DNA from: Candidatus Phycocordibacter aenigmaticus
Lineage (GTDB): Bacteria; Patescibacteriota; Minisyncoccia; Phycocordibacterales; Phycocordibacteraceae
Direction of reading: 5' to 3'
Length of the DNA stretch: 64,000 bases
NCBI GenBank assembly: GCA_045401115.1
Contig: CP174359.1
Location: 652,667-716,666 of the forward strand
Below are positions 27,366 through 64,000 of the stretch, piece by piece; position 1 is the stretch's first letter; each line of letters starts with the position of its first letter. A model generated the notes under the pieces. The model did not search any database and had not been told where the DNA came from. It worked only from the letters and a program-made list of their open reading frames with translations. The position numbers and the translations under genes are program-made.

Positions 27366-27603
27366 AATCTGTGTGTCGCTGCTGTCAAATAACTGTCTCT
27401 TATCGGTATTCAGCGACTCCTGGGCCTATTCCAGGTTGGAACCAATTCTATATATGAAAATAGGATTTGTCAAGTCTTTCATTATTCATCCATATACTGC
27501 GCGCTCTTTGGCTAAAGGTCATTTTATGATAGGTAATCATACGTATAGTACGCTGCGAGAAAACTTGACAAAACCTTTTTTATGTTATATATATGCATTA
27601 CAT

Positions 27604-47584: not shown

Positions 47585-48260
47585 GAGTAAGTTGTGTTAT
47601 TGCGGCAGCAGGATCATTTGAGGAAAAAATAAACGAACCGGATGCAAGACGATTTGCGCCAGCTGTTATAAGACTTGGTGCAACTTCTGCATTTACACCA
47701 CCGTCTATTTGAATAATAGCATTAGGATACGCTTCTCGAATTGAACGCACCGTGGAAATAGTTTTTTCTGAAAATGGCTCACCTTGTTTGCCAATATGTT
47801 CAATACCCATAACCTGCACATAATCAACATGATGCATATATAGAGCAAGCTGTGCCATATCTGTGTCTGGCATCACTGCTACGCCAAGCTCAATGTCGTT
47901 GTCAAATGCAATACGCTTAAGCGCATTCAAATCGTGGGTCGCGTTTATGTGAAAAATTGCCCGAGTAATACCGAGCCTACTCCACTGTTCAAGTAATACT
48001 TCCGGTTGATGCACCATTAAATCAACTTCGAAATTAAACACCTCTTGGAACGGAAGTCCTTCGTGTCCCTCGACGATACGTGTAAATTCTTCTGTGTCAC
48101 CCGCATGCATTGGCCACGTACGCATTGGCACGAACACACCGTCACATACATCAAGTTGTACGTATGGCGCTATGCCTTGTACACGCGCAAGATGCCCCTC
48201 TATTTCCTTAAGAGTAGGCACTAAAATAGCAGGCAGCACCTCAACATTCTTCATGTTCAA
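47577..48260 (-). CDS. rpe: Ribulose-phosphate 3-epimerase
   Basis: 227-aa TIM barrel. QLDVCDGVFVP and C-terminal IQIDGGVN blocks resemble Rpe, and the gene sits in a pentose-phosphate cluster. Confidence 0.65.
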   Translation of the reverse strand: MNMKNVEVLPAILVPTLKEIEGHLARVQGIAPYVQLDVCDGVFVPMRTWPMHAGDTEEFTRIVEGHEGLPFQEVFNFEVDLMVHQPEVLLEQWSRLGITRAIFHINATHDLNALKRIAFDNDIELGVAVMPDTDMAQLALYMHHVDYVQVMGIEHIGKQGEPFSEKTISTVRSIREAYPNAIIQIDGGVNAEVAPSLITAGANRLASGSFIFSSNDPAAAITQLTHV

Positions 48261-48693
48261 TACGAGTTATTTTATCCAGTCGTCGTTGATGCCTCTCTGC
48301 GGGATCACGTTCAGTGGCAAGAAATACATCAGCATACTCACGCACCTCGCTCTCATTAAGAACATCGGCAGCGAGTGTAATTACGTTTATATCGTCGTGT
48401 GCGCGAGCGTGATGAACTGATTCTTTTGAATAACCTACGGTAGCGCGCACGCCGCGCACCTTATTAGCAACCACATCCATACCCATACCAGAGCCACATA
48501 ATAAGATACCGCGTGCCTCACTATCGCGAGCGACTGCCTGCGCTACGGGGTACGCAAAATCAGGATAATCATCAGTTGAATCTTCTTCAAACGCGCCCAT
48601 ATCTTCAACGGTATATCCCGATTCAATAAGATATTGCTTGAGCACCTCTTTGTCTTGGTACCCTCTGTGATCTGCGCCAATGTATACCTTCAT
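48241..48693 (-). CDS. rpiB: Ribose-5-phosphate isomerase B
   Basis: 150 aa. MKVYIGADHRGY...ILLCGSGMGMDVVANK matches the RpiB/LacAB family. Confidence 0.85.
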   Translation of the reverse strand: MKVYIGADHRGYQDKEVLKQYLIESGYTVEDMGAFEEDSTDDYPDFAYPVAQAVARDSEARGILLCGSGMGMDVVANKVRGVRATVGYSKESVHHARAHDDINVITLAADVLNESEVREYADVFLATERDPAERHQRRLDKITRIEHEEC

Positions 48694-48696
48694 AGA

Positions 48697-49725
48697 TTAA
48701 ATATGGGAGCCGGTCTTAGTGACGTGCGTGACCAGTGTGTTGGCGTAGCCCATTTCATTGTCGTACCACGAGAACACCTTTACTAAATTACCACCTACCA
48801 CACGAGTAAAATCAAGATCTGCAATTGAGGCATGCGTATCACCAATAATGTCGCTGGAGACGATTGGGTCTTCGTTCACTCGGAAAATACCGTGCCAGCG
48901 CTTCTCTTGAGCGGCTGCGCGCAAGATATCATTCACTTCTTCTGTTGAGGTATCGCGTTTTGATACAAAAGTAATATCAACAAGCGAACCAACTGGTACC
49001 GGCACGCGCATAGCCACACCATCAAATTTATCCGAGAGTTGCGTCAGTGCTTGTGTGGTTGCCAACGCAGCGCCAGTAGTAGAGGGGACAATATTCGCTG
49101 CTGCTGCACGACCACGTCGTGGGTCTTTTTTTGATGGCCCATCAATCAGTGCTTGTGAGGCAGTGTATCCGTGTACGGTATTAAGTAATGCTTTTTCCAC
49201 ACCGAGTGTTTCGTCAAGAATAGCCATAAGCGGCGTACCAGCGTTTGTCGTACATGATGCGTTTGATGAAATGTCACACGTCTTGAGTGTATCGTCATTC
49301 ACTCCCATTAATACTGTAGCGCCAGAAACCCCTGCCTGTTTCGGATCATCTTTAACTGGAGCACTGACCACGACGCGTTTTGCGCCGGCAGTGAGATGCG
49401 CTTTTGATTTTTCATAACTAGCGAAGACACCTGTTGCTTCAACCACCACATCTACATCGTGTTTTTCCCATGGCAACTGTGCTGGATCACGCTCTGCATA
49501 GAGTGGAATTGTATCCGAACCAACAGTAAGCTCATTCTCCCCAGCAACAACACGTTCCGGAAATCGACCATAAACTGTGTCATAGCTCAGTAGATAGGCC
49601 AGGTTCTCAGGATCAGCGAGGTCATTGATGGCGACAATAGTAATATTGGGATTGGCGTGTGCGAGTCGATAGAATGCACGCCCAATTCTACCGAATCCAT
49701 TAATAGCTACGTTTAATTTTTTCAT
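48697..49725 (-). CDS. gap: Glyceraldehyde-3-phosphate dehydrogenase
   Basis: NAD-binding LNVAINGFGRIGRAFYR plus the catalytic region. Start trimmed to MKKLNVAING. Confidence 0.88.
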   Translation of the reverse strand: MKKLNVAINGFGRIGRAFYRLAHANPNITIVAINDLADPENLAYLLSYDTVYGRFPERVVAGENELTVGSDTIPLYAERDPAQLPWEKHDVDVVVEATGVFASYEKSKAHLTAGAKRVVVSAPVKDDPKQAGVSGATVLMGVNDDTLKTCDISSNASCTTNAGTPLMAILDETLGVEKALLNTVHGYTASQALIDGPSKKDPRRGRAAAANIVPSTTGAALATTQALTQLSDKFDGVAMRVPVPVGSLVDITFVSKRDTSTEEVNDILRAAAQEKRWHGIFRVNEDPIVSSDIIGDTHASIADLDFTRVVGGNLVKVFSWYDNEMGYANTLVTHVTKTGSHI

Positions 49726-49824
49726 ATCCACATTGTAGCGCATCATTTATACCCCCTCTCCACATCTCGTTATCGCCACTAATAGTGAGTTATGGGTTAA
49801 GAATGCTGAAAATGCTCTATACAC

Positions 49825-49931: not shown

Positions 49932-50453
49932 TTAAGATCGCCTTCCGTAGACCAGCGATGTCACGACGAACCCAATAACAAGCCCGACAGCAATACCAAT
50001 AAGGTTTGAAGAGCTGAAGAAACCACCGCCACTGTTCGTATTTGCAACTGCACCACCAACGACAGTGAGTGTGAATTCAGTACTTGCTATTGCTTCATCT
50101 TCATTTTGATAACGGGCACTCACTGTGTATTCTCCAGCATACGGAAACACATAACTCAAACGTGACCCACCGAATTCGGCGTTATGCACACCAGTTGCTA
50201 ATGTCGTGCCGCGTTCTCCTTCAATACGCACCCACACATCGGAAAAATCATGAAAACGTTCTTGATTACGTAAAATCTCAAAATCAAAGATAACTGCTTC
50301 ACCGACCTCCGGTGCCGGAGAACTGTATCCAATATCAAGCGCATATCCATTCACCTCATCTTCGTGGGATGTCCCCCATGAATGAGCACCTACCACACCA
50401 GGAGCGAGTAAAAATAGAAACGTGACGAGGAAAGTAGCTACAAATTTCATCAT
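49932..50453 (-). CDS. Secreted protein with N-terminal His after the predicted signal cleavage site and a C-terminal TM anchor (YcnI/CopC-like architecture; putative metal-binding)
   Basis: Signal peptide MMKFVATFLVTFLFLLAPGVVGA, then mature HSWGTSHEDEV..., a beta-rich middle and a C-terminal TM helix IGIAVGLVIGFVVTSLVY plus RRS. Confidence 0.4.
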   Translation of the reverse strand: MMKFVATFLVTFLFLLAPGVVGAHSWGTSHEDEVNGYALDIGYSSPAPEVGEAVIFDFEILRNQERFHDFSDVWVRIEGERGTTLATGVHNAEFGGSRLSYVFPYAGEYTVSARYQNEDEAIASTEFTLTVVGGAVANTNSGGGFFSSSNLIGIAVGLVIGFVVTSLVYGRRS

Positions 50454-50854
50454 TTAACTATGATAACACCAGTGAAGTATGGCGCAAGGTGATCGTGGAA
50501 ATCCCACTCTCCTGTTTGACCGAATGTGAATTCCCACGTTTCTTCCGCCGATACTGGTCGTTTTGGATCAAACTCAGGATAGTCACGATGTGATGGATGA
50601 AGGTTAGATGCCGGCCAATGTGGTTTTTTAAGTTCCGTATTAAACACCACAGTATCCCCTTCCTCTATCTCGAGTTCTTCTGGGACATATCCGGTTTCAG
50701 TAAGTGTGATGGTGTGAATAACACCAGTGGCGTTAGTAATTGGTTGATTATTTACTTCCTCTTTTGATGAGTTGTTTTGGGAAAAGAAAAACACCGCCCC
50801 TGCAAGTACAGCTAGGAGCACTATAACAACACCGAGTACACGTTTATCACCCAT
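50450..50854 (-). CDS. Membrane-anchored stand-alone cupredoxin-like domain protein (Cys ligand replaced by HDH)
   Basis: 134 aa. N-terminal TM, then ITLTETGYVPEELEIEEGDTVVFNTELKKPHWPASNLHPSH...ETWEFTFGQTGEWDFHDHLAPYFTGVIIVK. This matches the cupredoxin_1-like strand pattern (GDTVxFxN...H...TFxxxGxYxYxCxxHPxMxGxIxV) with C-x-x-H-P-x-M replaced by H-D-H-L-x-P. Confidence 0.6.
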   Translation of the reverse strand: MGDKRVLGVVIVLLAVLAGAVFFFSQNNSSKEEVNNQPITNATGVIHTITLTETGYVPEELEIEEGDTVVFNTELKKPHWPASNLHPSHRDYPEFDPKRPVSAEETWEFTFGQTGEWDFHDHLAPYFTGVIIVK

Positions 50855-50866
50855 AGAATAAAAAAA

Positions 50867-52309
50867 TTATATCACGTCTTGCGGACAGTATGCAGCCAGC
50901 TCAGGAGTAAGCGTGTTGCAGATACGTCTTGTTTTCTCCACGCTATACCATCCATCTAAATCACCAAGAACTTCTGTATAGCAAGCATCCTTATGGGTCA
51001 CTGAAAGGGTCGCATCTGCACAAAAATCAAGCGCGGCTTCATATTCTTTTTCTGGAATTCCATGTTCAAGGAGACCGTGAGCAAAACCAGCGATACACCG
51101 GTTTTGGTGTGTACCAAGTCGACGACATACATCAACAACCTCAGCACTATTGAAAGACGGCAATTCATTGTACGCATACAAACCTGCAAGATATTCAAGG
51201 GCCACATTCAAATGCGGTTCTTTTGTGCCTGAAAGCACTGCTTGAGCTGCAGGGAGGAATTGATTATCGGCCATCCAGAAAATAACCGAGTTCATGTTAC
51301 CGTAGCATGATTCAGCATACTGTCCTTCTTGTGCAGCGCACAGAGTAACCGGGTTTTCTTTTGACACATCCAATCCATACTCATTATTAATATATAAATT
51401 TGCAATGCCGTTAAATAAACCTGACGCACAACGGAATCGTTCTTCCTCCCCCTCTGACGCAACTTCACATTGCGCAAGTGCCGCATCTATTACTGCCGAT
51501 ACGCTGCCAAATTCTCCTGTATTCGCAATAAAAGTTTCCATCACCCCATGGCCAATGCCGTGATAACACTGCAAACGTGCATCGGGCGCATCCCGCCCCA
51601 CTGCTTCGCCAATCGCTTCACACACACCGCCGGCACTCGCAATATCATCGGTGGCACCAAGATATGCTTCCATAAAACCATGATGGAAGCCTGAAGCACA
51701 TGCTGACGCTTTTGGTGTCATGATTGAATTTGAGTCTTTACGATAAAATCCATAACTTGCCAAGCCAATATTATGCGCAATGTAGTGACAAGACTGCGCA
51801 AACTCAGGTTCGCTTTCATAGAGTTCAGCCACTTTGTCATACGCTGCGCCAAGCCCATCTTCAGCAAGTGCAAGAAAAATATCGTCCTGCCAGCACGCAA
51901 GATTACCTCCCCGAGAAATACAACTATCTGTTAATTCACCATCTACACCAGTGACGCGTACGATACCAAAATAAAATGGTGCGAGATGGTCATGATATTT
52001 AAAAAGACCTGATTCCGTGAAGGTAAACTCCCACGTGGCTCCTGGCGGCAGTGCTTGTTGCGTATCAAACTCGGGATATGCTTCGTGTGTTGGATGAAAA
52101 TCAGAAGCCGGCCAAAAATATTTGTTACTTCTATTAACAAATGTCACTGTCTCCCCCACAGCAACCGTAATCTCAGTTGGTGAAAAACCATTTTCAGTGA
52201 GCAGCACAGTACGCGGCGGTGTTACTATCAGATTGATAAGTAACACCAAGCCCGTTATCATTATAACGCTCCCAACTCCAACCAATACTCCTTTTTTATT
52301 TTTATTCAT
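50867..52309 (-). CDS. Paralog family member A1: TM anchor + cupredoxin-like domain + Cys/His-rich helical repeats
   Basis: The cupredoxin-like block (GETVTFVNRSNKYFWPASDFHPTHEAYPEFD...TWEFTFTESGLFKYHDHLAP) is followed by repeats such as SCHYIAHNIGLASYGFY, CASGFHHGFMEAYL and CYHGIGHGVMETF. Start trimmed to Met15. Confidence 0.65.
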   Translation of the reverse strand: MNKNKKGVLVGVGSVIMITGLVLLINLIVTPPRTVLLTENGFSPTEITVAVGETVTFVNRSNKYFWPASDFHPTHEAYPEFDTQQALPPGATWEFTFTESGLFKYHDHLAPFYFGIVRVTGVDGELTDSCISRGGNLACWQDDIFLALAEDGLGAAYDKVAELYESEPEFAQSCHYIAHNIGLASYGFYRKDSNSIMTPKASACASGFHHGFMEAYLGATDDIASAGGVCEAIGEAVGRDAPDARLQCYHGIGHGVMETFIANTGEFGSVSAVIDAALAQCEVASEGEEERFRCASGLFNGIANLYINNEYGLDVSKENPVTLCAAQEGQYAESCYGNMNSVIFWMADNQFLPAAQAVLSGTKEPHLNVALEYLAGLYAYNELPSFNSAEVVDVCRRLGTHQNRCIAGFAHGLLEHGIPEKEYEAALDFCADATLSVTHKDACYTEVLGDLDGWYSVEKTRRICNTLTPELAAYCPQDVI

Positions 52310-53780
52310 AAACAAAATCGTATGAGCAATATTTCTGATACGGTTCCTCAATAGTATTACATATATCCGCTACCTTCTCTTTTGTATAAATCCCCTTAAA
52401 GGTGCGAGTAATATTCCAGTAGCATACGTCCCGTTCATGAGCAGTGAGTATGTCGGTACGACAAAAATCCAAAGCTTTTTCATATTCACGATTTGGCTCG
52501 CCAAAGGCTGCAAATGCACCCGTTAATCCTTTCATACAATCTGTTTGTAAAAACTGCGGTAAGCGCCGGCAGTCATATACTAAATCGGAAAAATCATCTT
52601 CAAGAATACGTGCGCCAAGTGCACCAGCAGCAAATGAATTAATAATCGTACCGGCAATCAAATCGTCAGGAATAGTGGAGATGTGTTTCTCATATATCAT
52701 TCCCATATCAATATTTACCTCAGTATTGAGTTTCATTGCGACTTCGTAGTAGCACGCACGTGCAATTTCATCACTTTCAAATGAAGCGCATAATATAAAC
52801 GGTTTATCATCAGAATAATGTAATCCAAATTGATTGTTCCACATCCAGTCAGCGATGACATTAAAGGCGCCTTGGAGGCATTGTTCACGCAGCGGAGTCT
52901 CTTTAAGTCGATCACACGCGGTGAGGGCGGGAGCAACTAACTTTTCTGTATTTCCCCAATCTTCAATATTAAGGGGTTCAGGGACAAAGCCGTGCCCAAT
53001 GGCGTGATAGCAGTTTAATTGTATCCATGGCAATTCATCTTCACGTCCGGTAAGGTTCTCACAAATTTCAAGTGCGAGATCGTAGTCCGGTTCATCGCGC
53101 AGGAAATGCTCAAGGAATCCATGGTAGTAACCGTAGCCACAGTACGAAGTTTCCGGCGGGAACTCCAATTTACTCATGTCTTTGTGACCAAGATACAAAC
53201 CATACTCAACTTCACCGAGTTTGTGTGCCATCCAGTGACATCCGATAGAACTAAATTCGGGTTCGTTTTCATACAGCTCTTCGAAGAGTGCGAACGACTC
53301 TTTTACTCCCTCAGTTTCTAACGTATTGGCAAGTTCCCGTTCCCAACATGCCTGTTTTTCTGACGCGCTTAATTCATCAGAACGTTCAATACAACTCACC
53401 ACTTCAGTGACATCACCTACAAGAATCTGGCCTCGAAAGTAGGGACGGAGATGGTCGTGGTACCACCACACACCATCTTTTTTAAACGTAAACTCCCAAC
53501 GCTCACCCGGTTTTATCGGCCTACCCACATCAAACTCGCTGTATATTTCATGTAGTGGATGGTTGTCGGATGCGACCCACAACGAATGACTACTCTTGTT
53601 TAAAAAAGTAACTGTGTCCCCTGAATCAATCACGAGTTTCTTTGGCGAGAAGCCACTGTCTTTTAGAACGACTGTGTTTGGCGTTAACGGCTGATACTGA
53701 GACAATGCCAATCCTCCCACAAGAAACGTGAGTGCGAGAATGCTAATAATGATGAGAGCGGGTCGTAAAAAAATATTCAT
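52302..53780 (-). CDS. Paralog family member A2 (cupredoxin-like + Cys/His-rich repeats)
   Basis: 492 aa. GCHWMAHKLGEVEY, YCGYGYYHGFLEHFL and NCYHAIGHGFVPEP. Near-identical to A3 over long stretches at the nucleotide level. Confidence 0.65.
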   Translation of the reverse strand: MNIFLRPALIIISILALTFLVGGLALSQYQPLTPNTVVLKDSGFSPKKLVIDSGDTVTFLNKSSHSLWVASDNHPLHEIYSEFDVGRPIKPGERWEFTFKKDGVWWYHDHLRPYFRGQILVGDVTEVVSCIERSDELSASEKQACWERELANTLETEGVKESFALFEELYENEPEFSSIGCHWMAHKLGEVEYGLYLGHKDMSKLEFPPETSYCGYGYYHGFLEHFLRDEPDYDLALEICENLTGREDELPWIQLNCYHAIGHGFVPEPLNIEDWGNTEKLVAPALTACDRLKETPLREQCLQGAFNVIADWMWNNQFGLHYSDDKPFILCASFESDEIARACYYEVAMKLNTEVNIDMGMIYEKHISTIPDDLIAGTIINSFAAGALGARILEDDFSDLVYDCRRLPQFLQTDCMKGLTGAFAAFGEPNREYEKALDFCRTDILTAHERDVCYWNITRTFKGIYTKEKVADICNTIEEPYQKYCSYDFVYE

Positions 53781-53814
53781 AGCGTACTCTTACATGCTCG
53801 ATATATGTACTGCG

Positions 53815-55290
53815 CTATTCATATGAGTATTCATAAGAGCAGTATTCTTTATATGGCTCTGCAATATTGGTACATACCTCTGCCATTTTCTCTTTTGTAT
53901 AAACCCCTTTAAAGGTGCGGGTAATATTCCAGTAACATGTGTCTCTTTCTTTCTCTGTAAGTATATTCATACTGCAAAAATCTATTGCCTTTTCATATTC
54001 ACGATTTGGCTCGCCGTATGCCACAAATGCACCCGTTAATCCTTTCATACAATCTGTTTGTAAAAACTGCGGTAAGCGCCGGCAGTCATATACTAAATCG
54101 GAAAAATCATCTTCAAGAATACGTGCGCCAAGTGTAGTTGCCATAAATGAATTAATGACCATACCTGCGATTCTTTCGTTTGGTATATCAGAAACATATT
54201 TCTCATGCGCCAATATGACATCGTTATCAACCTTTGGATTTAACTTCATTGCCACTTCGTAGTAACACGCTTCTGATGTATACGTATCTTCAAAAAGAGC
54301 ACATATTTCAAGTGGTGTGTCGTCTGGGAAATACAAACCAAATTGGTTATTCCACATCCAGTCAGCGATGACATTGAAGGCACCTTGGAGACATTCAACA
54401 CGAAGTGCCTGCTCGTCAAGCCGATTACACGCATTCAGTGCAGGTGCTACCAGCTCTTTTGGCTTCCCCCACTCTTCAATATCGAGTGGTTCGGGAACAA
54501 AGCCGTGTCCTATGGCGTGGTAGCAATTCAACCGTATGCGTGGCAATTCATCTTCACGGCCGGTAAGATTCTCACAAATTTCAAGTGCGAGATCGTAGTC
54601 CGGTTCATCGCGCAGGAAATGCTCAAGGAATCCATGGTAGTAGCCGTAACCACAGTACGAAGTTTCCGGCGGGAACTCCAATTTACTCATGTCTTTGTGG
54701 CCAAGGTAAACGCCATACTCAACTTCACCGAGTTTGTGTGCCATCCAGTGACATCCAATTTGACTAAACTCAGGCTCACTCTCGTATAATTTTTTAAAGA
54801 GTACAAATGATTCCTTCACCCCTTCAATTTCCAGGGTATTGGCAAGTTCCCGCTCCCAACATGCTTGCTTCTGTGATGTATTCAACTCGTCGGAGCGTTC
54901 AATACAACTCACCACTTCAGTGACATCACCTACAAGAACCTGGCCGCGAAAGTAGGGACGGAGATGGTCGTGGTACCACCACACACCGTCGTTCTCGAAT
55001 GTGAACTCCCAACTCTCGCCGGGCTGTATGGGCCTGCCTATATCAAATTCAGTATAGATGTCATGTTGTGGATGGTTGTCGGATGCAACCCATAACGAAT
55101 GACTGCTCTTGTTTAAAAAAGTCACTGTACCCCCTGAGTCAACCACGAGTTTCTTTGGTGAAAAACCACCATCTTTCAGTACGACTGTGTTTGGTGCTAA
55201 GGATTCATAATTGGAGACCACGATTCCGGCCGCGAAAAATGCGAAAGCAAGAATACTGATGATAATACTGGGTCGTAAAAAAATATTCAT
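53815..55290 (-). CDS. Paralog family member A3 (cupredoxin-like + Cys/His-rich repeats)
   Basis: 491 aa. About 85% identical to A2 (same motifs). For example nt 54040..54130 equals 52530..52620. Confidence 0.65.
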   Translation of the reverse strand: MNIFLRPSIIISILAFAFFAAGIVVSNYESLAPNTVVLKDGGFSPKKLVVDSGGTVTFLNKSSHSLWVASDNHPQHDIYTEFDIGRPIQPGESWEFTFENDGVWWYHDHLRPYFRGQVLVGDVTEVVSCIERSDELNTSQKQACWERELANTLEIEGVKESFVLFKKLYESEPEFSQIGCHWMAHKLGEVEYGVYLGHKDMSKLEFPPETSYCGYGYYHGFLEHFLRDEPDYDLALEICENLTGREDELPRIRLNCYHAIGHGFVPEPLDIEEWGKPKELVAPALNACNRLDEQALRVECLQGAFNVIADWMWNNQFGLYFPDDTPLEICALFEDTYTSEACYYEVAMKLNPKVDNDVILAHEKYVSDIPNERIAGMVINSFMATTLGARILEDDFSDLVYDCRRLPQFLQTDCMKGLTGAFVAYGEPNREYEKAIDFCSMNILTEKERDTCYWNITRTFKGVYTKEKMAEVCTNIAEPYKEYCSYEYSYE

Positions 55291-55323
55291 AGTGATGTTA
55301 TTCTCCTCACTGTATATACTGCG

Positions 55324-56796
55324 TTATTCATACGTACAATATTTTTGATACGGTGCCGCAATCAGTGCGCACACTTTTTCCATTTTATCTTTTAGATACA
55401 CTGCTTCAAATGTACGGACAATATTCCAGTAACAAATATCTCTCTCTTCTTCAGATAGTATATCCAAATTACAAAAATCAATTGCTTTTTTGTATTCGTT
55501 CTCTGGTTCACCAGCAGCCATAAATGCTGCAGATAATCCTTTCATGCAGTCTGTCTGTAAGAATTCTGGTATCTGCCTGCACTCATACACAAAACGGGAA
55601 AAGTCGTTGTTGAGAATGTCTTGACCAAGAGCGCTCGCTGCAACAGAACTCAGCACCATACCTGCAATAGCTTCATCGGGTATATGAGATATGTATTTAT
55701 TATATGCACGCACAATATTATTATCAACACTCGGGTTCAGTCGCATTGACACCTCGTAATAACACGCAGACTTCTTTTCATGATCATCAAAAGATGCGCA
55801 GAGAGCAAGAGGTTTATCTTCTGGGTAGTACAAACCAAATTGGTTATTCCACATCCAATCACCAATTACATTAAACGTCCCTTGATAACATTCGTGACGC
55901 TCGTCGTCACGGCTCATTCTCTCACATGCGTCTAACGCCGGAGCAACCATTTTCCGTGGGTCTCCCCACACTTCAACATCATCCGGCTCAGGAACAAATC
56001 CGTGACCGACCGCATGATAGCAGTTCAAGCGAATTCGTGGGATTCTATCTTCAAGTCTGGTAATGAGTGTTTGACAGAACTGGTTGGCGGCATCGTAATC
56101 AGGGTCGTCACGTAGGTAATGCTCCAGAAATCCATGATAGTAGCCGTATCCACAATACGATGTCTCCGGAGGAAATTCTAAACGAGAAAGATCTTTATGG
56201 GTTAGGAATTCGCTATACTCAACCTCACCAATTTTATGCGCCATCCAGTGACATCCAATAGTAGTAAAATCTTTATCTGTATTATACAGTTCAGTAAATA
56301 ATTCGAACGAAGCTGTGGTTCCATGTTCCTTAAGTTCGTTTGCAAGCTCTCGCTCCCAGCACGACTGTTTATCCTCAATTGACGCTCCTTCGAGTTCATC
56401 GAGACAACTCTTTGATTCGTCGGCATTACCCACCACCACTTTTCCGTTGTAGTAAGGGCGCAGATGGTCGTGATACCACCAGACTCCCTCTTTTTCAAAA
56501 GTAAACGTCCACGATTCATTTTTCTCAAGTGGATGTCCTGCATCAAACTCCGTATATAAAGTATGCTGAGGATGATTATCAGAAGCAGGCCAAAATGAAA
56601 ATGAGCCTTTATTTATAAATGTTACCGTCTCCCCCACTTGAATTGCTATTCGCGAGGGATGAAAACCACCATCTTTAAAAACAACTGTGTTTGGTCCCAC
56701 AGGTGTATAGTTAGACACCACGATTCCGCCTACGAGAAACGCGAGTGCGAGAATGCTAATGATAATAAAAGCGGAAAGAGGTGCTGAAATTTTCAT
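55324..56796 (-). CDS. Paralog family member A4 (cupredoxin-like + Cys/His-rich repeats)
   Basis: 490 aa. GETVTFINKGSFSFWPASDNHPQH...WWYHDHLRPYY, GCHWMAHKIGEVEY and NCYHAVGHGFVPEP. Confidence 0.65.
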   Translation of the reverse strand: MKISAPLSAFIIISILALAFLVGGIVVSNYTPVGPNTVVFKDGGFHPSRIAIQVGETVTFINKGSFSFWPASDNHPQHTLYTEFDAGHPLEKNESWTFTFEKEGVWWYHDHLRPYYNGKVVVGNADESKSCLDELEGASIEDKQSCWERELANELKEHGTTASFELFTELYNTDKDFTTIGCHWMAHKIGEVEYSEFLTHKDLSRLEFPPETSYCGYGYYHGFLEHYLRDDPDYDAANQFCQTLITRLEDRIPRIRLNCYHAVGHGFVPEPDDVEVWGDPRKMVAPALDACERMSRDDERHECYQGTFNVIGDWMWNNQFGLYYPEDKPLALCASFDDHEKKSACYYEVSMRLNPSVDNNIVRAYNKYISHIPDEAIAGMVLSSVAASALGQDILNNDFSRFVYECRQIPEFLQTDCMKGLSAAFMAAGEPENEYKKAIDFCNLDILSEEERDICYWNIVRTFEAVYLKDKMEKVCALIAAPYQKYCTYE

Positions 56797-56805
56797 GGAG
56801 TCTTT

Positions 56806-58050
56806 TTATTGTATATCATTAGCGTTTGGTTGAATATTATATCCTTCTTTGTTTAAACACTGCGTACTCCATGGTTCAGGTAGTGTTCGGCAAAACGTTT
56901 TAAATGGCTCTGAATCCGGTATAAAGTTAAACGTTGAATAGAATAACAGTTCATCGTAGCACCGCTGACCAACACCATGCTCTTCAGCTATTTCACACAA
57001 ATCAACCGCGCGCGAGGCAAGGCGATAATCGGTTTCAATAAACCGCGATGCTGAATTTGCAAAACACTGCCCTTGTCGCTCTTGCGGCAATCCTTCACAA
57101 ATCGGAACAATCCGGCTCGCATCAAAATTAAATTGAGCTGTTAACACATAGAACATCGCATTGTAACAACGATGCATTGACTGCCCATCAGGTACAAGAT
57201 TACAAAATCGCTGGAGTAAGTTCGGGTCACTAAGCTCCTCGCGATAGAGCGGCCAACTTTCTCGATGACATGCCGCACGACGCTCGCCAGAAAATGTTCT
57301 GCAAAACGCTTCGGCTTCTGCTTGGGTTTCCGGCTCTATATCCTCAACGAGGGCGAAATCCTCAGGCTCAAGCGGTTGAAAAATCTGCATGTAGGCGCCC
57401 TCATAACATGTTTGTGTATAATCGCGCTCGCCTTTTTTTGCCACTTGATCACATACTCCGGTTGCCTCACTGATATGAGCATCAGTAATATACATAGAAA
57501 GATGTCCTAGAGCGTGGTAACAACTTGCCTGTTCAAGACCAGTAAACGTTTTTGCTTCACTATTTTCACAGATAGTATCAAGTTGAGGAATGAGTTCTTG
57601 AAGTTCTTCACCTACAAAAACCTTATCGCGGAAACGCTCTTGAAATGCACCGTGAATAGCACCGTTTGAACAAACACCGGTCGGTGCACGCGCAATAACT
57701 TCAGTCCATTTAGAAAGGTCCTTAGCTGCTTCTTTAGCAGATAAGTTATGACCAAGTACATGGCAATAAAAATAACTAGGGTCACGTTCCTGTACTTTAA
57801 CTGTTACTTGAAACGCTTCCTCCATAGTAAGTCCTTTATCCATAAGACGCGGTATCTCGGTATCGTAACAATGAGGCGCATTATTTTCTTCCGCACACGC
57901 TTCCATCACCTCGTCAGCGAGCTCTGCAAAGGTTTTACCAGACGTACCGACAGTATCTACAAACAAGCCCTGCAGCTGCCCTGCAGCTGCATAGCCTATA
58001 ACAATAAGAACTAAAATACTGATTATAAAAATATTTTTCTTTTTTTGCAT
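56806..58050 (-). CDS. Paralog family member B1 (signal anchor + Cys/His-rich repeats, no cupredoxin domain)
   Basis: 414 aa. YCHVLGHNLSAKEAAKDL, CSNGAIHGAFQERF and CYHALGHLSMYI. Paralogous to 61354..62610. Confidence 0.6.
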   Translation of the reverse strand: MQKKKNIFIISILVLIVIGYAAAGQLQGLFVDTVGTSGKTFAELADEVMEACAEENNAPHCYDTEIPRLMDKGLTMEEAFQVTVKVQERDPSYFYCHVLGHNLSAKEAAKDLSKWTEVIARAPTGVCSNGAIHGAFQERFRDKVFVGEELQELIPQLDTICENSEAKTFTGLEQASCYHALGHLSMYITDAHISEATGVCDQVAKKGERDYTQTCYEGAYMQIFQPLEPEDFALVEDIEPETQAEAEAFCRTFSGERRAACHRESWPLYREELSDPNLLQRFCNLVPDGQSMHRCYNAMFYVLTAQFNFDASRIVPICEGLPQERQGQCFANSASRFIETDYRLASRAVDLCEIAEEHGVGQRCYDELLFYSTFNFIPDSEPFKTFCRTLPEPWSTQCLNKEGYNIQPNANDIQ

Positions 58051-58055
58051 ACAAT

Positions 58056-59057
58056 TTATGGACGATCTTCAATGCCTTCGGTTAAATCAGCTAATCTCAG
58101 ACATCGATCTCTCTCCTGTGGAGATACTAACACGCAAAATTGTTCTGGTTCATCGCGAAGCTCATCTAAAGCATAGAAACTCCATGACGCTCCCGCTAGA
58201 CACGCCACCTCCCCAAGGGAACCAAACGCAGCGCAATGTTCACGTACACGCGGCGCGTTGTATTCAGTACTCGGTGCTAAATTAGATCCAATACCCATAA
58301 AACATCGCTCACGATAGATAGACGACGCAATATCACCACATACAGCTTTTTGTTGCTGAATGTTGTTATTCAACATCCGCAAAAACCACTGACCAAGTTC
58401 AAAATAGCAAGACTCTCGAAAAACCTCATCGACTTCAGTGCAGGGAGTATATGGGTCATTTTTATTAAACTCCCGGGGTTTCGGTATTTCTCCATCAGGA
58501 CCAACAACAAGTGGAGTGTTGTACTCCATAAACACTCCTGAAGTACAGCCTAAAAGTTGGGTGACTTGAGTAGTTTTTGCACATAACTCAAGTGCTTTAG
58601 AGACACTCTCATATCCGACATATTCCATAATACCGTGACCGATACCATGTTGGCACCCGGTACCTAAGACTGAGTACGCATTAACACATTGTGTATCAAG
58701 CTCACTGATTACAGAAACACCTTCTTCACTAATTGCTCGCCCAAAAAACCCATGGAAACAACCGAAACTAAAACTTGCATCACAGTAACGGATACCCGCA
58801 ACACCTTCATGTTCATAAAAAAGCTCTCCGATAATATGTGTTGAAAGATGTCGCCTCTCAAAGGGTGCGACTTGATTCTTCTTTTTAAATTCAGAAAATG
58901 CATCCTGCGCACCTACTTTATTAATGCGTGTATCCCAATACGCACGATTATAGGACTCACTCTCTATTGAATAGATTGGATGTGAGTCAGCGGTTAAAAA
59001 TGTGCCGATAAACATACCGACAATGATAAGTACTCCAAATATTGCAAAACGTCTCAT
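58056..59057 (-). CDS. Paralog family member C1 (signal anchor + Cys/His-rich repeats)
   Basis: 333 aa. FSFGCFHGFF, CQHGIGHGIMEY and GCTSGVFMEYNTPL. Paralogous to 59060..60091. Confidence 0.6.
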   Translation of the reverse strand: MRRFAIFGVLIIVGMFIGTFLTADSHPIYSIESESYNRAYWDTRINKVGAQDAFSEFKKKNQVAPFERRHLSTHIIGELFYEHEGVAGIRYCDASFSFGCFHGFFGRAISEEGVSVISELDTQCVNAYSVLGTGCQHGIGHGIMEYVGYESVSKALELCAKTTQVTQLLGCTSGVFMEYNTPLVVGPDGEIPKPREFNKNDPYTPCTEVDEVFRESCYFELGQWFLRMLNNNIQQQKAVCGDIASSIYRERCFMGIGSNLAPSTEYNAPRVREHCAAFGSLGEVACLAGASWSFYALDELRDEPEQFCVLVSPQERDRCLRLADLTEGIEDRP

Positions 59058-59059
59058 AG

Positions 59060-60091
59060 TTACATAATATCAGCATCTTCAGTTGGACAGGGAGAATAGT
59101 ATTCAGAAATACTCTCACTACATACTAATGCAGCATCTTCATATCCAGCACCATCAAACATAACGCTCCACGCGGCTGACGCGCGACATAAATATCTACC
59201 TTTTTCTGTAGGCATGAGCCCACACCCTTCATTTACTTTATACGGATCAAAATTAACACTTGGAGCCACAACACCACCTAATCCATGGTAACAATTTCGT
59301 ACATAGCTTTCTAAAGGAGACCCGGCACAAAGCGCGCCAATCTTTTCAAAATCATAGTTATATACCTGCCCCCACCACTGTGGTAATTCGTGATAACACG
59401 AATCCCTAAATTCCACCGCAACAGTGTCACATGGCGCATAGGGGTTCTCTGGATTAAGAGGCCGAGGTTCAGTAAAGAAGACTCCTTCGTCAGAATAGCG
59501 TAGCGGTGTGTTGTATTCCATAAACACACCGCCGGTACAACCAGCTATCGGGTTCGGTTGGGTTGTTTTTTTACATAACTCAAGCGCTTTTGCTAATTGT
59601 CCACCACCAAAATATTCCACCAATCCGTGACCAATGCCATGCCGACATGCAGATGGGTCACCATATGTTACTGCGCTACACGCCTCATCTAATTTTGTAA
59701 TACTACTAATTCCTTCAAAAGAAACTGCGTTGGTAAAAAAACCATGATAACAACCAAACGCAAACTGTGGGTCACAATATCGCACTCCTTCTATTCCCTC
59801 CGAAACAAGTAACTCTTCCCCAAAAATATGCGCAGCATTATGTTGTGTTCCAAAATCAGCATGTTGATAATCAGTAACAAAACGAGCATATGCCTTCTGA
59901 GGACCCTGAGTCGAAAGAAGATCTGTTATGCGCGTCCGCACCTGTGCCGGATCTACTCCATATCCTCCTCTATCGGCAACTAATGTGTCTTCTGTATTTG
60001 GTATAGATGGCTTAATAAAGGAATGTATAAAAAACCATAAAAAAATTCCTGCCAGAATCACCACAAATAGAAACAAGGCATTCTTTTTCAT
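59060..60091 (-). CDS. Paralog family member C2 (signal anchor + Cys/His-rich repeats)
   Basis: 343 aa. FAFGCYHGFF, CRHGIGHGLVEY and GCTGGVFMEYNTPL. Confidence 0.6.
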   Translation of the reverse strand: MKKNALFLFVVILAGIFLWFFIHSFIKPSIPNTEDTLVADRGGYGVDPAQVRTRITDLLSTQGPQKAYARFVTDYQHADFGTQHNAAHIFGEELLVSEGIEGVRYCDPQFAFGCYHGFFTNAVSFEGISSITKLDEACSAVTYGDPSACRHGIGHGLVEYFGGGQLAKALELCKKTTQPNPIAGCTGGVFMEYNTPLRYSDEGVFFTEPRPLNPENPYAPCDTVAVEFRDSCYHELPQWWGQVYNYDFEKIGALCAGSPLESYVRNCYHGLGGVVAPSVNFDPYKVNEGCGLMPTEKGRYLCRASAAWSVMFDGAGYEDAALVCSESISEYYSPCPTEDADIM

Positions 60092-60095
60092 ACCT

Positions 60096-61313
60096 TTATG
60101 TATTATTTAAACAGAAATTACGGTGCGGACCTTCCGGAAGGCGGTTACACAAAGGCGCTGCTGATTTAGTGTTGCGCATGAAATAAACAATTGTCTCTGA
60201 AAGGTGTCGGTAGCAGGCATTCCGTTCTCGTTCATCTTCGGCAATAGCGCAAAAAGTAAAAGAGGCATCAGGGTTATTTTCACCTCCCCAAAACAACGAT
60301 CCTAAGGCACTTGCATTACACGCCATTCTACCCGCCTCATTATCGGTAAGCGCACACCACTCCCGTATCCGTTGCAATGACTCTTTCGGAGCAGACCCGA
60401 TGTCGCGTATATCCCTGTCCTGCGCAAGCACGAGAAATTCCTTACCGAACCCTCCGTAACACGCCTCCCATTCAGCTCTGTTCTTTTTTGGTATTTCATC
60501 ACAGTAGGTAAACGCTTTCTCATAGTCTTCAGGTTGCGGGCGGGCGAGATCGGCACCGGCGCTGACAAAAAGGTGTGGAGTAAGATAGGTGTAACAAATC
60601 GGGCGTACAAGTTCAGGCATAAACGATGCGTTGCATGGCGCAAGTGGATCATCCTCTTTAAAATAATTATCTTTCTCTAACTCCCATGCGTTTCGATCAT
60701 GGACACCAGCAAACATTTCCATTGTTGCCCCGCCGACACATTCAACATACTCACGATTTTGGCGCGCTTCACTACCGGTTTGCGCACACATCTCAATTGC
60801 CTGTTCAAAATTATAATTTGCATACGCGAGTATGCCATGTCCAAGTCCGTGAAAACACATTGTATAGGCACCCGAGCCGCCTGGCGCATTACTGCATGCC
60901 TCAGCTATTTCATTGAGCGCCCCCTTCCCTTCTTCAGAAAAAAGTCCGACCACTATTGAGTGTGAACAGGCATTACGAAAATCGGGAGTACAATCATAAA
61001 TACCGTCTATCCCTTTTTGTTTATATAATATGTCACCCACCACATGACCTAACAGGTGAAGATCCGTTCCTGGTGCAATGTCCGCCTGGAGCAGCGCTTG
61101 AAACGCATACGCCCCTCCTTTTTCCTCAGCAAGATTCTCAAAAAAATCAGCGTACTCGTCAAAAGAAAGTGGGTTTCCTTTCAAATCAGCAACTTCACGA
61201 TGCGGCTGTGCGAATGAATCAGTGACTATATAGCCCACACCAACCAACACCATGATGCCCACTACAAATAAAACGGATTTTATTTTCTTCATATGTGTCA
61301 CAATATCAGACAT
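60096..61313 (-). CDS. Paralog family member D (signal anchor + Cys/His-rich repeats)
   Basis: 405 aa. HLLGHVVGDILY, MCFHGLGHGILAY and VECVGGATMEMF. Confidence 0.6.
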   Translation of the reverse strand: MSDIVTHMKKIKSVLFVVGIMVLVGVGYIVTDSFAQPHREVADLKGNPLSFDEYADFFENLAEEKGGAYAFQALLQADIAPGTDLHLLGHVVGDILYKQKGIDGIYDCTPDFRNACSHSIVVGLFSEEGKGALNEIAEACSNAPGGSGAYTMCFHGLGHGILAYANYNFEQAIEMCAQTGSEARQNREYVECVGGATMEMFAGVHDRNAWELEKDNYFKEDDPLAPCNASFMPELVRPICYTYLTPHLFVSAGADLARPQPEDYEKAFTYCDEIPKKNRAEWEACYGGFGKEFLVLAQDRDIRDIGSAPKESLQRIREWCALTDNEAGRMACNASALGSLFWGGENNPDASFTFCAIAEDERERNACYRHLSETIVYFMRNTKSAAPLCNRLPEGPHRNFCLNNT

Positions 61314-61353
61314 AAAACGTACTTAGTATATCAGAATCCTCACCAATACATTC

Positions 61354-62610
61354 TTACAGATCAAAAATAGAGAGGTTAGATCCTTCACCTGCCTGGCAGC
61401 GTTCTTTATATGAGTGCGGCAAGAGTCCACAAAAATGTTCAAAGCGTTCAGTGCCCGGAACCGTACTAAACGATGAATAAAATAACAATTCATCCCAACA
61501 TCGCTTCCCCACACCTGTTTTTTCTGCCCGCTCACAAAATTCAATTGATTGTTCAAGAAAATCATCATCAATCTCTAAAAAACGAGAACTAATATTTGCA
61601 TAACATTGAGCCATACGTTCATCAGAAAGACCTAAACAAATCGCCTCTAGCCTGTCTTGGTTAAATTCAAAATGTGCCGTGAGTACATAAAAGATAGTAT
61701 TATAACAACCTTGAATCCCACGTTCTGTAGTGTATACACCACAGAACCGATCCATTCCTTTTATGGTTTTTATATCTTCCAAAAAAAGTGGCCAGGATTC
61801 ACTATTACATGATTCTCTTGGAATACGATCAAATTGTGCACAAAAATCACGCGCTTCCGTTTGTGTTCGCGGTGCTCGATCAGCAATAAGCGCGATGTCT
61901 TCAGGTTCAAGTGGTTGGAAAATTTGCATAAAAACCCCATCGTAACAATTACGCACAAACTCATATGGTTCACTCCGTGTGACCACCGAGTCACATAAAT
62001 TTACTGAAGCTTTAGCGTCTGCATCGTGAATATACATCGTAAGATGTCCAATCGCATGGTAACAACTGGTTCGCTCAAGCTCAGTAAATGTTCGAGTTGC
62101 AGTATCTTCACAAATAGTTTTTAATTTTGGTTTTAACACACCTAACTCTTCTGAAGAAACATTTTCATCTCGAAACCTTTCCTGAAATGCACCGTGTAAG
62201 CAGCCATTTGAACATTGGCCGACCGGGCATCGTGCTACCACATCAGTCCATTGCGAAAGGTCTTTTGCAGCTTCTTTAGCGGAAAGATTGTGTCCTAACA
62301 CGTGACAATAGTAATAACGTGGATCCTCTTTTTGTATAAGCGCAGTTACCTCAAACGCCTCTTCCATTGAAATGCCTCGTTGTAATAATTTTGGCACTTC
62401 TTCATCATAACAAGTCGGGGCGTAGTTACTTTCGGCACACACTTTTAGAATTTCTTTAGCATATCCCTCAACCCCACCACTTCCGTCACTTTGTATAATA
62501 GAAGCGACCAAAGTGACCGCACTGTAGCTCAGAAAAAATACTAAGAATAGAAAAGCACCAAGTACAAATCTTTTTCTAATATCAGACTGATTATTGTTCT
62601 TTTGCATCAT
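61354..62610 (-). CDS. Paralog family member B2 (signal anchor + Cys/His-rich repeats)
   Basis: 418 aa. YCHVLGHNLSAKEAAKDL, CSNGCLHGAFQERF and CYHAIGHLTMYI. Clear paralog of B1. Confidence 0.6.
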   Translation of the reverse strand: MMQKNNNQSDIRKRFVLGAFLFLVFFLSYSAVTLVASIIQSDGSGGVEGYAKEILKVCAESNYAPTCYDEEVPKLLQRGISMEEAFEVTALIQKEDPRYYYCHVLGHNLSAKEAAKDLSQWTDVVARCPVGQCSNGCLHGAFQERFRDENVSSEELGVLKPKLKTICEDTATRTFTELERTSCYHAIGHLTMYIHDADAKASVNLCDSVVTRSEPYEFVRNCYDGVFMQIFQPLEPEDIALIADRAPRTQTEARDFCAQFDRIPRESCNSESWPLFLEDIKTIKGMDRFCGVYTTERGIQGCYNTIFYVLTAHFEFNQDRLEAICLGLSDERMAQCYANISSRFLEIDDDFLEQSIEFCERAEKTGVGKRCWDELLFYSSFSTVPGTERFEHFCGLLPHSYKERCQAGEGSNLSIFDL

Positions 62611-64000
62611 TCAAACATTCTTCTTTATACTTATCAGGCATGGTAGCGCATAATGCTGTTTGTGTCTTTTCAGTCGAATAAAGTTCGGCAATACGATTAA
62701 TATATCTCTCAAAACATATTGCGGACGATTCCTCTGTACCTAAATCTACACAAAAACTACTTACTTTAATAGATGGCTCAACACCCCAATAATCAAACGC
62801 TGCATCAAAAGCACCTATAATACATGATTTGTAATACGCACGAGGCATGAGCGAACAGGTGCGTTCTACTTCTTGAGCATTACGTAACGTATTACTACTG
62901 GTATCACGACCTATGCTGTTAAAACACGCATCAACAAAACCTTCTTCCGCTCCCAGACATACATCAATTACTTCCTGGTAATCACGGGTAACTACCGCAA
63001 ACATCCAAGAAGTCTGCATTTGATAACACTTCCGTTTAGCAGTATGATCCTCAACCGTGTCACAAGGATAATAAAGATTATCAGTACTAACCCAATTCGT
63101 ATAATGCCCATTAATGCCGGCGGAAAAACCTAATGCTGTGGTTACATTTTCCATAAATACCCCACCATAACAAAAATCTGTTTTTTCTTTTTCAGAAAAC
63201 GAACGGCACGCTGAAAGAGCTTTTGGTAAATCATAATCAAGAAATGCCATAAGTCCGTGTCCCGCGCCATGGAAACACTGATTACGTTCAAATGGAACTT
63301 TAAGAGAAGTACATAAAGCATTGAGTTCTTCTTTAAAACTTCCGGAACCCACTTCCCAAAAAAACGCTTCAATGAAGCCGTGGTAAAAACCGGAATGACA
63401 CGCTGAACTGCCATCTTTAAGAATTTCCTTTCCGAATACATCATATGCTGCTCGCCCAACATAGTGAGCCGCACTATGGCAACTAAAATTTGAACCTTCT
63501 CCACTTTCTTCTGAAATTTTTTCTATCGTACGACGTGGACCAATCTGAAACACTACACGACGGATCTCAATATCATCGGGTGCATAATGGTATACCCTTT
63601 CTGCTTCATAATTTTTATCTGAAAAAAGATCTTCTTTGTCTAAGACAGTACCAAGCAACAACCCCTCGGAACCGCTTCTAATAGATGCGAGGCCTGGGAT
63701 GGTATTTGATTCTGTACGTATGATAGCGTGTAAAAAATATCGTACTGCTTTCGTTATATGATATATCACCGAACCAACATACTCACTATTGGGGTTCACT
63801 ACTACAGTGCCTGAAGATTGTAACGAGAGATGATCATGAAAATTCCAAAAGCCGGGTTCTCGGAACGTAAACGTATATTTACCGTTGGGAGGTATCGGTT
63901 CGCACGCGTCAAATACGTATTCTTCAATAAGAGAGCCGCAACGACGTATATCTGAACCAGGATATGCAGCGTGTGTGGGGTGGAAATTTGAAGCAGGCCA
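62591..64000 (-). CDS. Paralog family member A5 (partial; the N-terminal cupredoxin-like domain continues past the window end)
   Basis: The frame continues upstream of the listed GTG start. Translation of 63800..64000 gives WPASNFHPTHAAYPGSD...KYTFTFREPGFWNFHDHLS, followed by CHSAAHYVGRAAY, CHSGFYHGFIEAFF and CFHGAGHGLMAF. Confidence 0.6.
   Translation of the reverse strand, partial: WPASNFHPTHAAYPGSDIRRCGSLIEEYVFDACEPIPPNGKYTFTFREPGFWNFHDHLSLQSSGTVVVNPNSEYVGSVIYHITKAVRYFLHAIIRTESNTIPGLASIRSGSEGLLLGTVLDKEDLFSDKNYEAERVYHYAPDDIEIRRVVFQIGPRRTIEKISEESGEGSNFSCHSAAHYVGRAAYDVFGKEILKDGSSACHSGFYHGFIEAFFWEVGSGSFKEELNALCTSLKVPFERNQCFHGAGHGLMAFLDYDLPKALSACRSFSEKEKTDFCYGGVFMENVTTALGFSAGINGHYTNWVSTDNLYYPCDTVEDHTAKRKCYQMQTSWMFAVVTRDYQEVIDVCLGAEEGFVDACFNSIGRDTSSNTLRNAQEVERTCSLMPRAYYKSCIIGAFDAAFDYWGVEPSIKVSSFCVDLGTEESSAICFERYINRIAELYSTEKTQTALCATMPDKYKEECLNDAKEQ

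Follow-up and report, generated by a model that had tools for sequence, protein, structure and literature searches.

A conserved Patescibacteria operon encoding a new family of membrane-anchored, cysteine- and histidine-rich helical proteins together with cupredoxin and CopC-fold partners

The 64,000-nucleotide (nt) stretch of Candidatus Phycocordibacter aenigmaticus DNA analyzed here (contig CP174359.1 of assembly GCA_045401115.1, positions 652,667 to 716,666; hereafter, the window) carries an array of 12 tightly packed minus-strand genes that runs from position 49932 to ~64216 and thus extends beyond the window end. Ten of these genes encode an all-alpha domain of ~340 amino acids (aa; hereafter, the body), one encodes only a cupredoxin domain, and one encodes a 173-aa beta-sandwich protein. 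The helical body represents a new family and, as far as searches of the PDB tell, a new fold. The array is a conserved operon that consists of ancient, individually kept paralogs with a few lineage-specific duplications, and is not a fast-evolving variable array. We tentatively interpret the locus as an extracytoplasmic module for binding or redox chemistry of a metal, probably copper, that is built on the new fold and in which the metal site is putative.

The array spans ~14.3 kb (i.e., 2.0% of the 721-kb contig), with intergenic distances of -20 to +40 nt. Five of the ten body genes also encode an N-terminal cupredoxin domain ("cB"), while the other five ("B") encode a transmembrane (TM) anchor followed by the body. 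In the direction of transcription, the genes are arranged as a 541-aa cB, five B, four cB, the stand-alone cupredoxin ("c"), and, last, the 173-aa gene ("y"). An earlier, sequence-only reading of the window had described at least eleven same-strand genes of a single family; a same-strand array is indeed present, although the count has to be replaced by that given above. The same reading had counted five cupredoxin-bearing members and one gene for the cupredoxin alone, which agrees with our gene models, and had placed the proteins outside the cytoplasm. All of the complete array proteins, as well as the 541-aa protein, bear an N-terminal hydrophobic anchor, which supports the view that they are extracytoplasmic and membrane anchored.

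We built an AlphaFold2 model of the 480-aa cB protein (encoded at 50867 to 52309, minus strand), whose residue numbering is used throughout for the body and the cupredoxin domain. The model (83-sequence alignment; predicted local distance difference test [pLDDT], 94.7; predicted template modeling score [pTM], 0.91) comprises a TM helix (residues 5 to 28), a beta domain (34 to 120), and ~17 helices (130 to 472). Internal repeats of the body were detected by hhalign at up to 96.8% probability (E = 3e-10), and its N-terminal half matched its C-terminal half at 94.9%. Judging from the helix boundaries and the Cys positions, each conserved Cys pair would bridge two successive helices, from the C-terminal end of the first to the N-terminal end of the second. 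The body is therefore best described, provisionally, as a series of repeated alpha-helical hairpins in which successive helices would be stapled together by 6 to 8 putative disulfides.

Conservation was counted over 272 domain instances from 215 proteins. Five Cys pairs (230/248, 281/294, 324/335, 395/405, and 430/443) are 99 to 100% conserved. The variable pair 174/204 is either complete (191 instances) or missing altogether (81 instances), with no instance holding a single member, and the members of the pairs 359/370 and 464/475 co-occur with phi values of 0.96 and 0.87, respectively. Such paired gain and loss is the behavior expected of disulfide partners, and shared ancestry probably contributes to it. 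The number of Cys residues is even in all ten body proteins of the window (i.e., 14, 16, 18, or 20). Disulfide-stabilized alpha-hairpin repeats, as suggested in the sequence-only reading, are thus favored by the all-alpha model, the hhalign repeats, the co-occurrence of the Cys pairs, and the Cys parity. The regular Cys spacing of 12 to 15 residues that had been proposed is not seen; the Cys residues instead occur in pairs that are 10 to 30 residues apart.

An alignment of the ten body proteins contains 16 invariant columns, which comprise 5 His, 2 Gly, and 9 Cys residues. The invariant His residues form the motifs H175-x3-H179, H210(-x3-E214), and H250-x-x-G-H254, and their conservation in the homologs is 100% (H175), 99% (H179), 98% (H210), 99% (H250), and 99.6% (H254), with G253 at 100%. 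In the gene for the 480-aa protein, the corresponding codons were verified at 51785-51787 (H175), 51773-51775 (H179), 51680-51682 (H210), 51560-51562 (H250), and 51548-51550 (H254). A purely compositional origin of the motifs does not agree with this conservation of 98 to 100%. All five His residues are restricted to three neighboring helices (168 to 191, 199 to 220, and 244 to 264) in the N-terminal part of the body, where they include i/i+4 pairs. Hence, the earlier proposal that His side chains are presented by the repeats holds for the presence of invariant His residues but not for their distribution, because they are confined to three helices rather than found in every repeat. In type-3 copper proteins (tyrosinase and hemocyanin) and in the di-iron protein hemerythrin, HxxxH and HxxxE/H motifs with 5 to 6 His residues lie on adjacent helices, and the pattern of the body resembles this arrangement; our PDB searches revealed no sequence or structure similarity between the body and these proteins. 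As a working definition, members of the family have an all-alpha domain of ~340 aa that displays the motifs H-x3-H, G-x2-H-G, and C-x-H-G-x-G-H-G and in which five or more sequential Cys pairs are present. All ten paralogs of the window and the 272 instances from elsewhere conform to it.

No characterized family matched the body, in agreement with the earlier impression. Pfam and NCBIfam scans of all paralogs (E <= 1) left it without a match, the body profile had no match among PDB sequences, and a Foldseek search of the model against the full PDB returned cupredoxins only. Neither profiles nor solved repeat structures of Sel1, TPR, HEAT, or ankyrin proteins, a match to which would have contradicted the earlier proposal, matched the body, and we rejected its identification as a Sel1/TPR/HEAT repeat protein for this reason. 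We also rejected homology to EfeO, since neither the sequence nor the fold matched an M75/imelysin-like domain with an HxxE motif. No mention of the body family was found in the literature. The closest parallel in design principle is provided by the Sel1-like Hcp proteins of Helicobacter, which are secreted and consist of alpha/alpha hairpin repeats with one disulfide per repeat. The body differs from them in that it has no Sel1/TPR Pfam match at E <= 1, in its repeat length and motifs, and in its invariant His cluster, which is absent from Hcp.

A body profile built from the ten bodies of the window was searched against 1.84 billion cluster representatives (50% identity) and retrieved 7,503 representatives at E <= 1e-3, of which 2,739 reached E <= 1e-30. 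Homologs of the array proteins with E values of 1e-124 to 1e-40 likewise show that the similarity is not a chance effect. A scan of one genome per species yielded 131 relatives in 70 loci. Practically all relatives belong to Patescibacteria (Paceibacterota, Kaiser-, Nomura-, Yanofsky-, Taylor-, Colwell-, Doudna-, and Daviesbacteria, and others), and in almost every locus the genes stand in tandem, with as many as 17 consecutive members. The combination of cupredoxin and repeat domains, which the sequence-only reading had recommended looking for in other genomes, was found in these arrays and in a few other lineages. Outside Patescibacteria, single-copy cupredoxin-body genes occur in large genomes labeled Candidatus Poriferisodalis, SAR202, Rhodospirillales, and Thermodesulfobacteriota.

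The terminal order of the window array (i.e., cB-cB-c-y) is also present in six other loci (L001, L002, L003, L005, L007, and L017). Each paralog of the window has an ortholog with 40 to 65% identity at the corresponding position elsewhere, compared with 21 to 39% identity between the subfamilies of the window. The paralogs form approximately six clades by identity, rather than the four subfamilies previously distinguished. Even the youngest pair (52302-53780 and 53815-55290) has a nonsynonymous-to-synonymous substitution rate ratio (dN/dS) of 0.13 and a dS of ~1. The presence of ancient subfamilies in a conserved order points to nonredundant roles and not to ongoing amplification. The earlier suggestion of a long-running expansion was accordingly right about age, which it understated, while continued amplification is not supported.

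Body domains also occur in other combinations, with 1 to 7 copies per protein. One 3,580-aa protein (P0078; on an 831-kb ENA contig) has seven tandem bodies that precede a GH3 glycosidase domain and HEAT/LRV repeats, and another (P0079) has five body copies. Further fusions join three bodies with FG-GAP or an alpha/beta-hydrolase with a body, and P0098 has two bodies and, at its C terminus, two cupredoxins that match those of the window in type, with four invariant His residues (His4). The recurrent neighbors of the arrays are envelope proteins: large Ig-like surface proteins (33 loci), multi-TM proteins with TPR (17 loci), a PMT_2 glycosyltransferase, pilin, and PG_binding_1/fn3 proteins. The contexts of the homologs outside the candidate phyla radiation (CPR) are inconsistent and include toxin-antitoxin systems, transposases, a beta-lactamase-family gene, CW_binding_2 genes, and an oxidoreductase.

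The cupredoxin domain (residues 34 to 120 of the 480-aa protein) is a true homolog of amicyanin in which the type-1 Cys ligand is replaced by Asp. It has the Greek-key cupredoxin fold with detectable homology, and its profile matches amicyanin at E = 1e-10. The window proteins score 17 to 26.4 bits against PF13473 (Cupredoxin_1), which is just under the gathering threshold of 27 bits. Many homologs carry a precomputed PF13473 match, and P0098 reaches 45.9 bits. The best-scoring window protein is the stand-alone c (50450-50854, minus strand; 134 aa; E = 7e-6, 26.4 bits), a TM-anchored cupredoxin with zero Cys residues and the motifs WPASNLHPSH and FHDH, which was identified from PF13473 and the amicyanin alignment. 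An invariant W66-P-A-S-(D/N)-x-H72-P-x-H75, D82, and H106-D107-H108 are shared by 70 sequences, so that H72, H75, H106, and H108 are conserved throughout. Their codons in the 480-aa cB gene were verified at 52094-52096, 52085-52087, 51992-51994, and 51986-51988, respectively.

H106-D107-H108 falls on the Cys92 ligand loop of amicyanin. The type-1 ligand set (i.e., His-Cys-His-Met or Gln) is missing from the array cupredoxins, and we therefore rejected a standard blue-copper electron carrier. Together with the Asp that replaces the type-1 Cys, the four His residues would be an appropriate ligand set for a type-2-like Cu(II) site. In comparison with amicyanin and plastocyanin (PF13473 and PF00127), the array cupredoxins are homologous but have WPAS-x-x-H-P-x-H and H-D-H motifs in place of the type-1 ligands, are TM anchored, and are usually fused to the new helical domain. 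They also lack the hallmarks of multicopper oxidases, since each has one cupredoxin domain, one HxH motif (HDH), and no type-1 Cys; matches to domain 1 of laccase and Fet3 are weak (E = 1e-4 to 0.1). A two-domain multicopper oxidase is encoded 4 kb from the single-copy homolog on a SAR202 contig (L076:13356-14408), a single case that may be a coincidence.

The last gene of the operon, y (49932-50453, minus strand; 173 aa), overlaps c by 4 nt. Its product has a cleavable signal peptide (cleavage between VVGA and HSWG), a beta-sandwich of eight strands, and a TM helix near the C terminus; in the AlphaFold2 model (pLDDT, 88), the strands span residues 28 to 132 and the helix residues 148 to 170 of y. 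The mature N terminus is H24, which is the sole invariant potential ligand in sets of 28 and of 35 homologs. D40 and D57 are nearly invariant, and the homolog alignment contains neither a second invariant His nor a Met-rich Cu(I) loop. The protein thus has a CopC-type beta-sandwich fold and the complete YcnI architecture (i.e., signal peptide, N-terminal His, extracytoplasmic beta-sandwich, and C-terminal TM anchor). No sequence match accompanies this similarity: Pfam and NCBIfam scans at E <= 1 gave no match for y, to CopC/PcoC/CrdA (PF04234) or otherwise, CopC was not among the PDB sequence matches at E <= 10, and no sequence-model match to YcnI (DUF1775, PF07987) was obtained. The sequence-only reading had listed y as a YcnI/CopC-like upstream neighbor of the array. 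Its fold and architecture agree with that label, while a sequence match is lacking and the gene is the last, downstream member of the operon.

In comparison with the Cu(II) site of CopC and the mono-histidine brace of YcnI (PMC8424229, PMC9182242), y has the same invariant mature N-terminal His and, like YcnI, a C-terminal TM anchor. It differs from both in having no detectable sequence similarity, no second invariant His, no Met-rich Cu(I) loop, and no CopD/YcnJ-type membrane partner nearby.

According to the interpretation that we tentatively favor, the set of proteins would be attached to the cytoplasmic membrane on its outer face. The five invariant His residues of the body would make up a mononuclear or dinuclear site for a transition metal, most likely copper, provided that they lie close together in space, as we infer. 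The cupredoxin and the CopC-fold y may serve to capture the metal, to deliver it, or to pass electrons to and from the body, and the N-terminal His of y may act as in a histidine brace. The diverged paralogs would have separate functions, for example by binding distinct ligands or partners or by serving as different subunits of a single assembly. Copper would be the most likely metal because both partners have copper-protein folds, because the cupredoxin occurs both before and after the body in fusions, and because an all-His ligand set favors copper.

Several points weigh against this interpretation, in which metal binding, copper as the metal, redox or catalytic activity, and the convergence of the five His residues are all matters that we infer. 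E214 of the H210-x3-E214 motif is only 77% conserved. In the alignment with amicyanin, Asp takes the place of Cys92, Ala or Arg that of His95, and Phe or Lys that of Met98; with these type-1 ligands lost, classical electron transfer by the cupredoxin is not supported. No copper or iron transporter (CopA, CopD, or Ftr1) and no Dsb gene was found in the window or recurrently beside the arrays. Few requirements for copper are known in these organisms. Multibody chains and fusions with GH3, alpha/beta-hydrolase, and FG-GAP domains are more typical of a binding or scaffold module. A more specific version of the copper interpretation would place a new poly-His copper center in the body, to which the docked, Cys-less cupredoxin may add up to four His residues to give an interdomain multinuclear site, with y as a histidine-brace partner, in a cell-surface machine for redox chemistry or metal capture that Patescibacteria would have expanded massively. 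We regard this elaborated form as unlikely; the proposed interdomain site recalls the trinuclear cluster of multicopper oxidases but would be unrelated to it.

The multibody chains and fusions lead to the possible, though on balance rather doubtful, alternative that the body is a noncatalytic envelope module, i.e., an alpha-solenoid made rigid by disulfide staples, which would bind a wall polymer or partner protein or would assemble with other paralogs into a hetero-oligomeric surface structure. The His cluster would then be a ligand contact or a structural feature, and the cupredoxin and y would be further surface modules. The variable copy number, the GH3, alpha/beta-hydrolase, FG-GAP, and HEAT/LRV fusions, the envelope genes around arrays in other genomes, and the beta-lactamase-family and CW_binding_2 genes next to non-CPR homologs are consistent with this idea, and ancient paralogs in a fixed order fit subunits of one assembly. 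However, five His residues that are invariant in >270 divergent copies and include two HxxxH pairs would not usually be expected of a polymer-binding face, a domain with 6 to 8 disulfides would hardly seem to need a structural metal, and the repeated association with a His4 cupredoxin and a CopC-fold protein with an N-terminal His is left unexplained.

Acquisition of iron, or of divalent metals in general, by a system like EfeO or FtrA/FtrB is an improbable reading, in which y (P19-like) would capture the metal, the cupredoxin would oxidize Fe(II), and the body would hold Fe(III). The cB architecture of a cupredoxin with a helical His/Glu domain mirrors EfeO, and the partner folds fit: like EfeO and FtrA(P19)/FtrB, the array combines an extracytoplasmic Ig-like metal-binding protein, a non-blue cupredoxin, and a helical domain with metal-type ligands. 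The body is not M75-like, however, no Ftr1/EfeU-type permease partner is present in the window or recurrent near the arrays, ten body paralogs are found per locus, and the almost pure His ligands suit Cu or Zn better than Fe(III). That the genes encode rapidly diversifying surface antigens or host-adhesion variants from recent tandem duplication might be expected of membrane-anchored tandem surface proteins in an episymbiont-type genome with arrays of up to 17 genes. It is very improbable in view of the dN/dS of 0.13 and dS of ~1 even in the youngest pair, the orthologs that are closer than the paralogs of the window, the conserved gene order, and the invariant core residues; we rejected an antigenic-variation array on the basis of dN/dS and the conserved orthology.

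The family is large (at least 7,500 clusters at 50% identity), forms runs of up to 17 consecutive genes, can account for ~2% of a 0.72-Mb genome, and belongs mainly to Patescibacteria, which represent a large fraction of bacterial diversity and whose surface biology is mostly unknown. Despite its size, we found neither a Pfam/NCBIfam model nor a solved relative for the body, and current annotations read "hypothetical," "plastocyanin," or "cupredoxin domain-containing." In published metabolic reconstructions of CPR, NirK is supplied with electrons by single-domain cupredoxins (PMC5581439, PMC12931201). Since the members of this family have no type-1 Cys, NirK-donor assignments that rest on these genes need checking. 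If the poly-His copper center were true, the genes labeled "plastocyanin" from which electron transport to NirK has been inferred in CPR genomes would be something else, and a real metal center would offer a new scaffold for copper bioinorganic chemistry.

The remaining genes of the array, all on the minus strand, are given here from the downstream end. The 480-aa cB (50867-52309; 494 aa if the start is at 52351), with its TM anchor, His4 cupredoxin, and all-alpha body (residues 130 to 472), is 100% identical to NCBI ACJKTH_03825, a hypothetical protein of the metagenome-assembled genome named "Patescibacteria group bacterium UBA2163." It is followed by a 492-aa cB (52302-53780), the youngest duplicate, with 78% identity to the 491-aa cB at 53815-55290, and by a 490-aa cB (55324-56796) with ~60% identity to both. 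The five B genes encode a 414-aa protein with a TM anchor, a body, and 18 Cys residues (56806-58050), whose orthologs are 58 to 65% identical and located at the matching position in other genomes; a 333-aa protein with 14 Cys residues (58056-59057), from a short subfamily without the C174/C204 pair; a 343-aa protein, also with 14 Cys residues (59060-60091) and 39% identical to the preceding one; a 405-aa protein with 16 Cys residues (60096-61313), whose orthologs are 48 to 59% identical; and a 418-aa protein with 20 Cys residues (61354-62610), which has ~50% identity to the 414-aa protein and whose exact sequence is also present on another contig (L071).

The first gene of the operon is a cB gene cut by the window end (62591-64000). 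Its frame is open up to position 64000, where it encodes the end of the cupredoxin domain. L071 provides its full length (541 aa; start at ~64216), in which a TM anchor is followed by a cupredoxin that carries an insert with Cys residues; a long linker connects this domain to the body. The 14-residue insert (GSDIRRCGSLIEEYVFDAC; L071:220-540, window 63800-64000, minus strand) has two Cys residues and is absent from the other cupredoxins of the window, while one C-terminal cupredoxin of P0098 carries the same two-Cys insert. The gene upstream of the operon (L071:3-146) is unrelated to the family and has a Thr/Ala/Arg-rich low-complexity tail (TTARATTTAKVTTTVRVTT...). The array therefore begins with the 541-aa protein and does not run on well beyond the window end. 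A scan for promoters and terminators revealed no enrichment. We rejected as spurious the overlapping ORFs (open reading frames) of 80 to 148 aa that lie in other frames within the array, which comprise several on the plus strand and three on the minus strand (56202-56546, 60302-60652, and 63142-63504); the latter three had no BLASTP match in seven other loci.

Three types of array-associated genes from other genomes are absent from the window. A third accessory type, found in 21 loci (L006:11411-12500, L009:14178-15176, and 19 more) ~25 nt from the arrays, encodes TM-anchored proteins of ~160 to 230 aa in which a Cys pair is conserved and the strand pattern G-D-x-V-x-F-x-N is cupredoxin-like, whereas a His motif is missing. 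In 17 loci (L045:2599-4974 and 16 more), a multi-TM protein with a C-terminal TPR is encoded ~23 nt from the array, and 9 loci have a pair of genes for membrane proteins (~160 and ~330 aa) inside the arrays.

The remainder of the window is ordinary chromosome, with rpoB, dnaE, gyrB, tRNA synthetase genes, and probable genes for GAPDH, RpiB, and a split transketolase. Just downstream of the operon, the ORFs in a row read as GAPDH (48697-49746), RpiB (48241-48693), and a ribulose-phosphate epimerase-like protein (47577-48260). They are followed by minus-strand ORFs for a 288-aa product (46718-47584) that, judging from its translation and the gene order, reads like the N-terminal, thiamine pyrophosphate-binding half of the transketolase, and for a 335-aa product (45727-46734) that is presumably its C-terminal half. 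Relatives of 5 of the 6 ORFs in the row downstream of the operon recur near arrays in 4 to 6 other loci, and a representative of the GAPDH-type group near other arrays matched the Pfam Gp_dh domains. Farther away, a 1,137-aa ORF (23329-26742, minus strand), whose sole Pfam match is a weak one to a SpaA/prealbumin-like fold, probably encodes a large surface protein of a kind common in such genomes, and it adjoins a gene for a CARDB-domain protein at 27289-28650.

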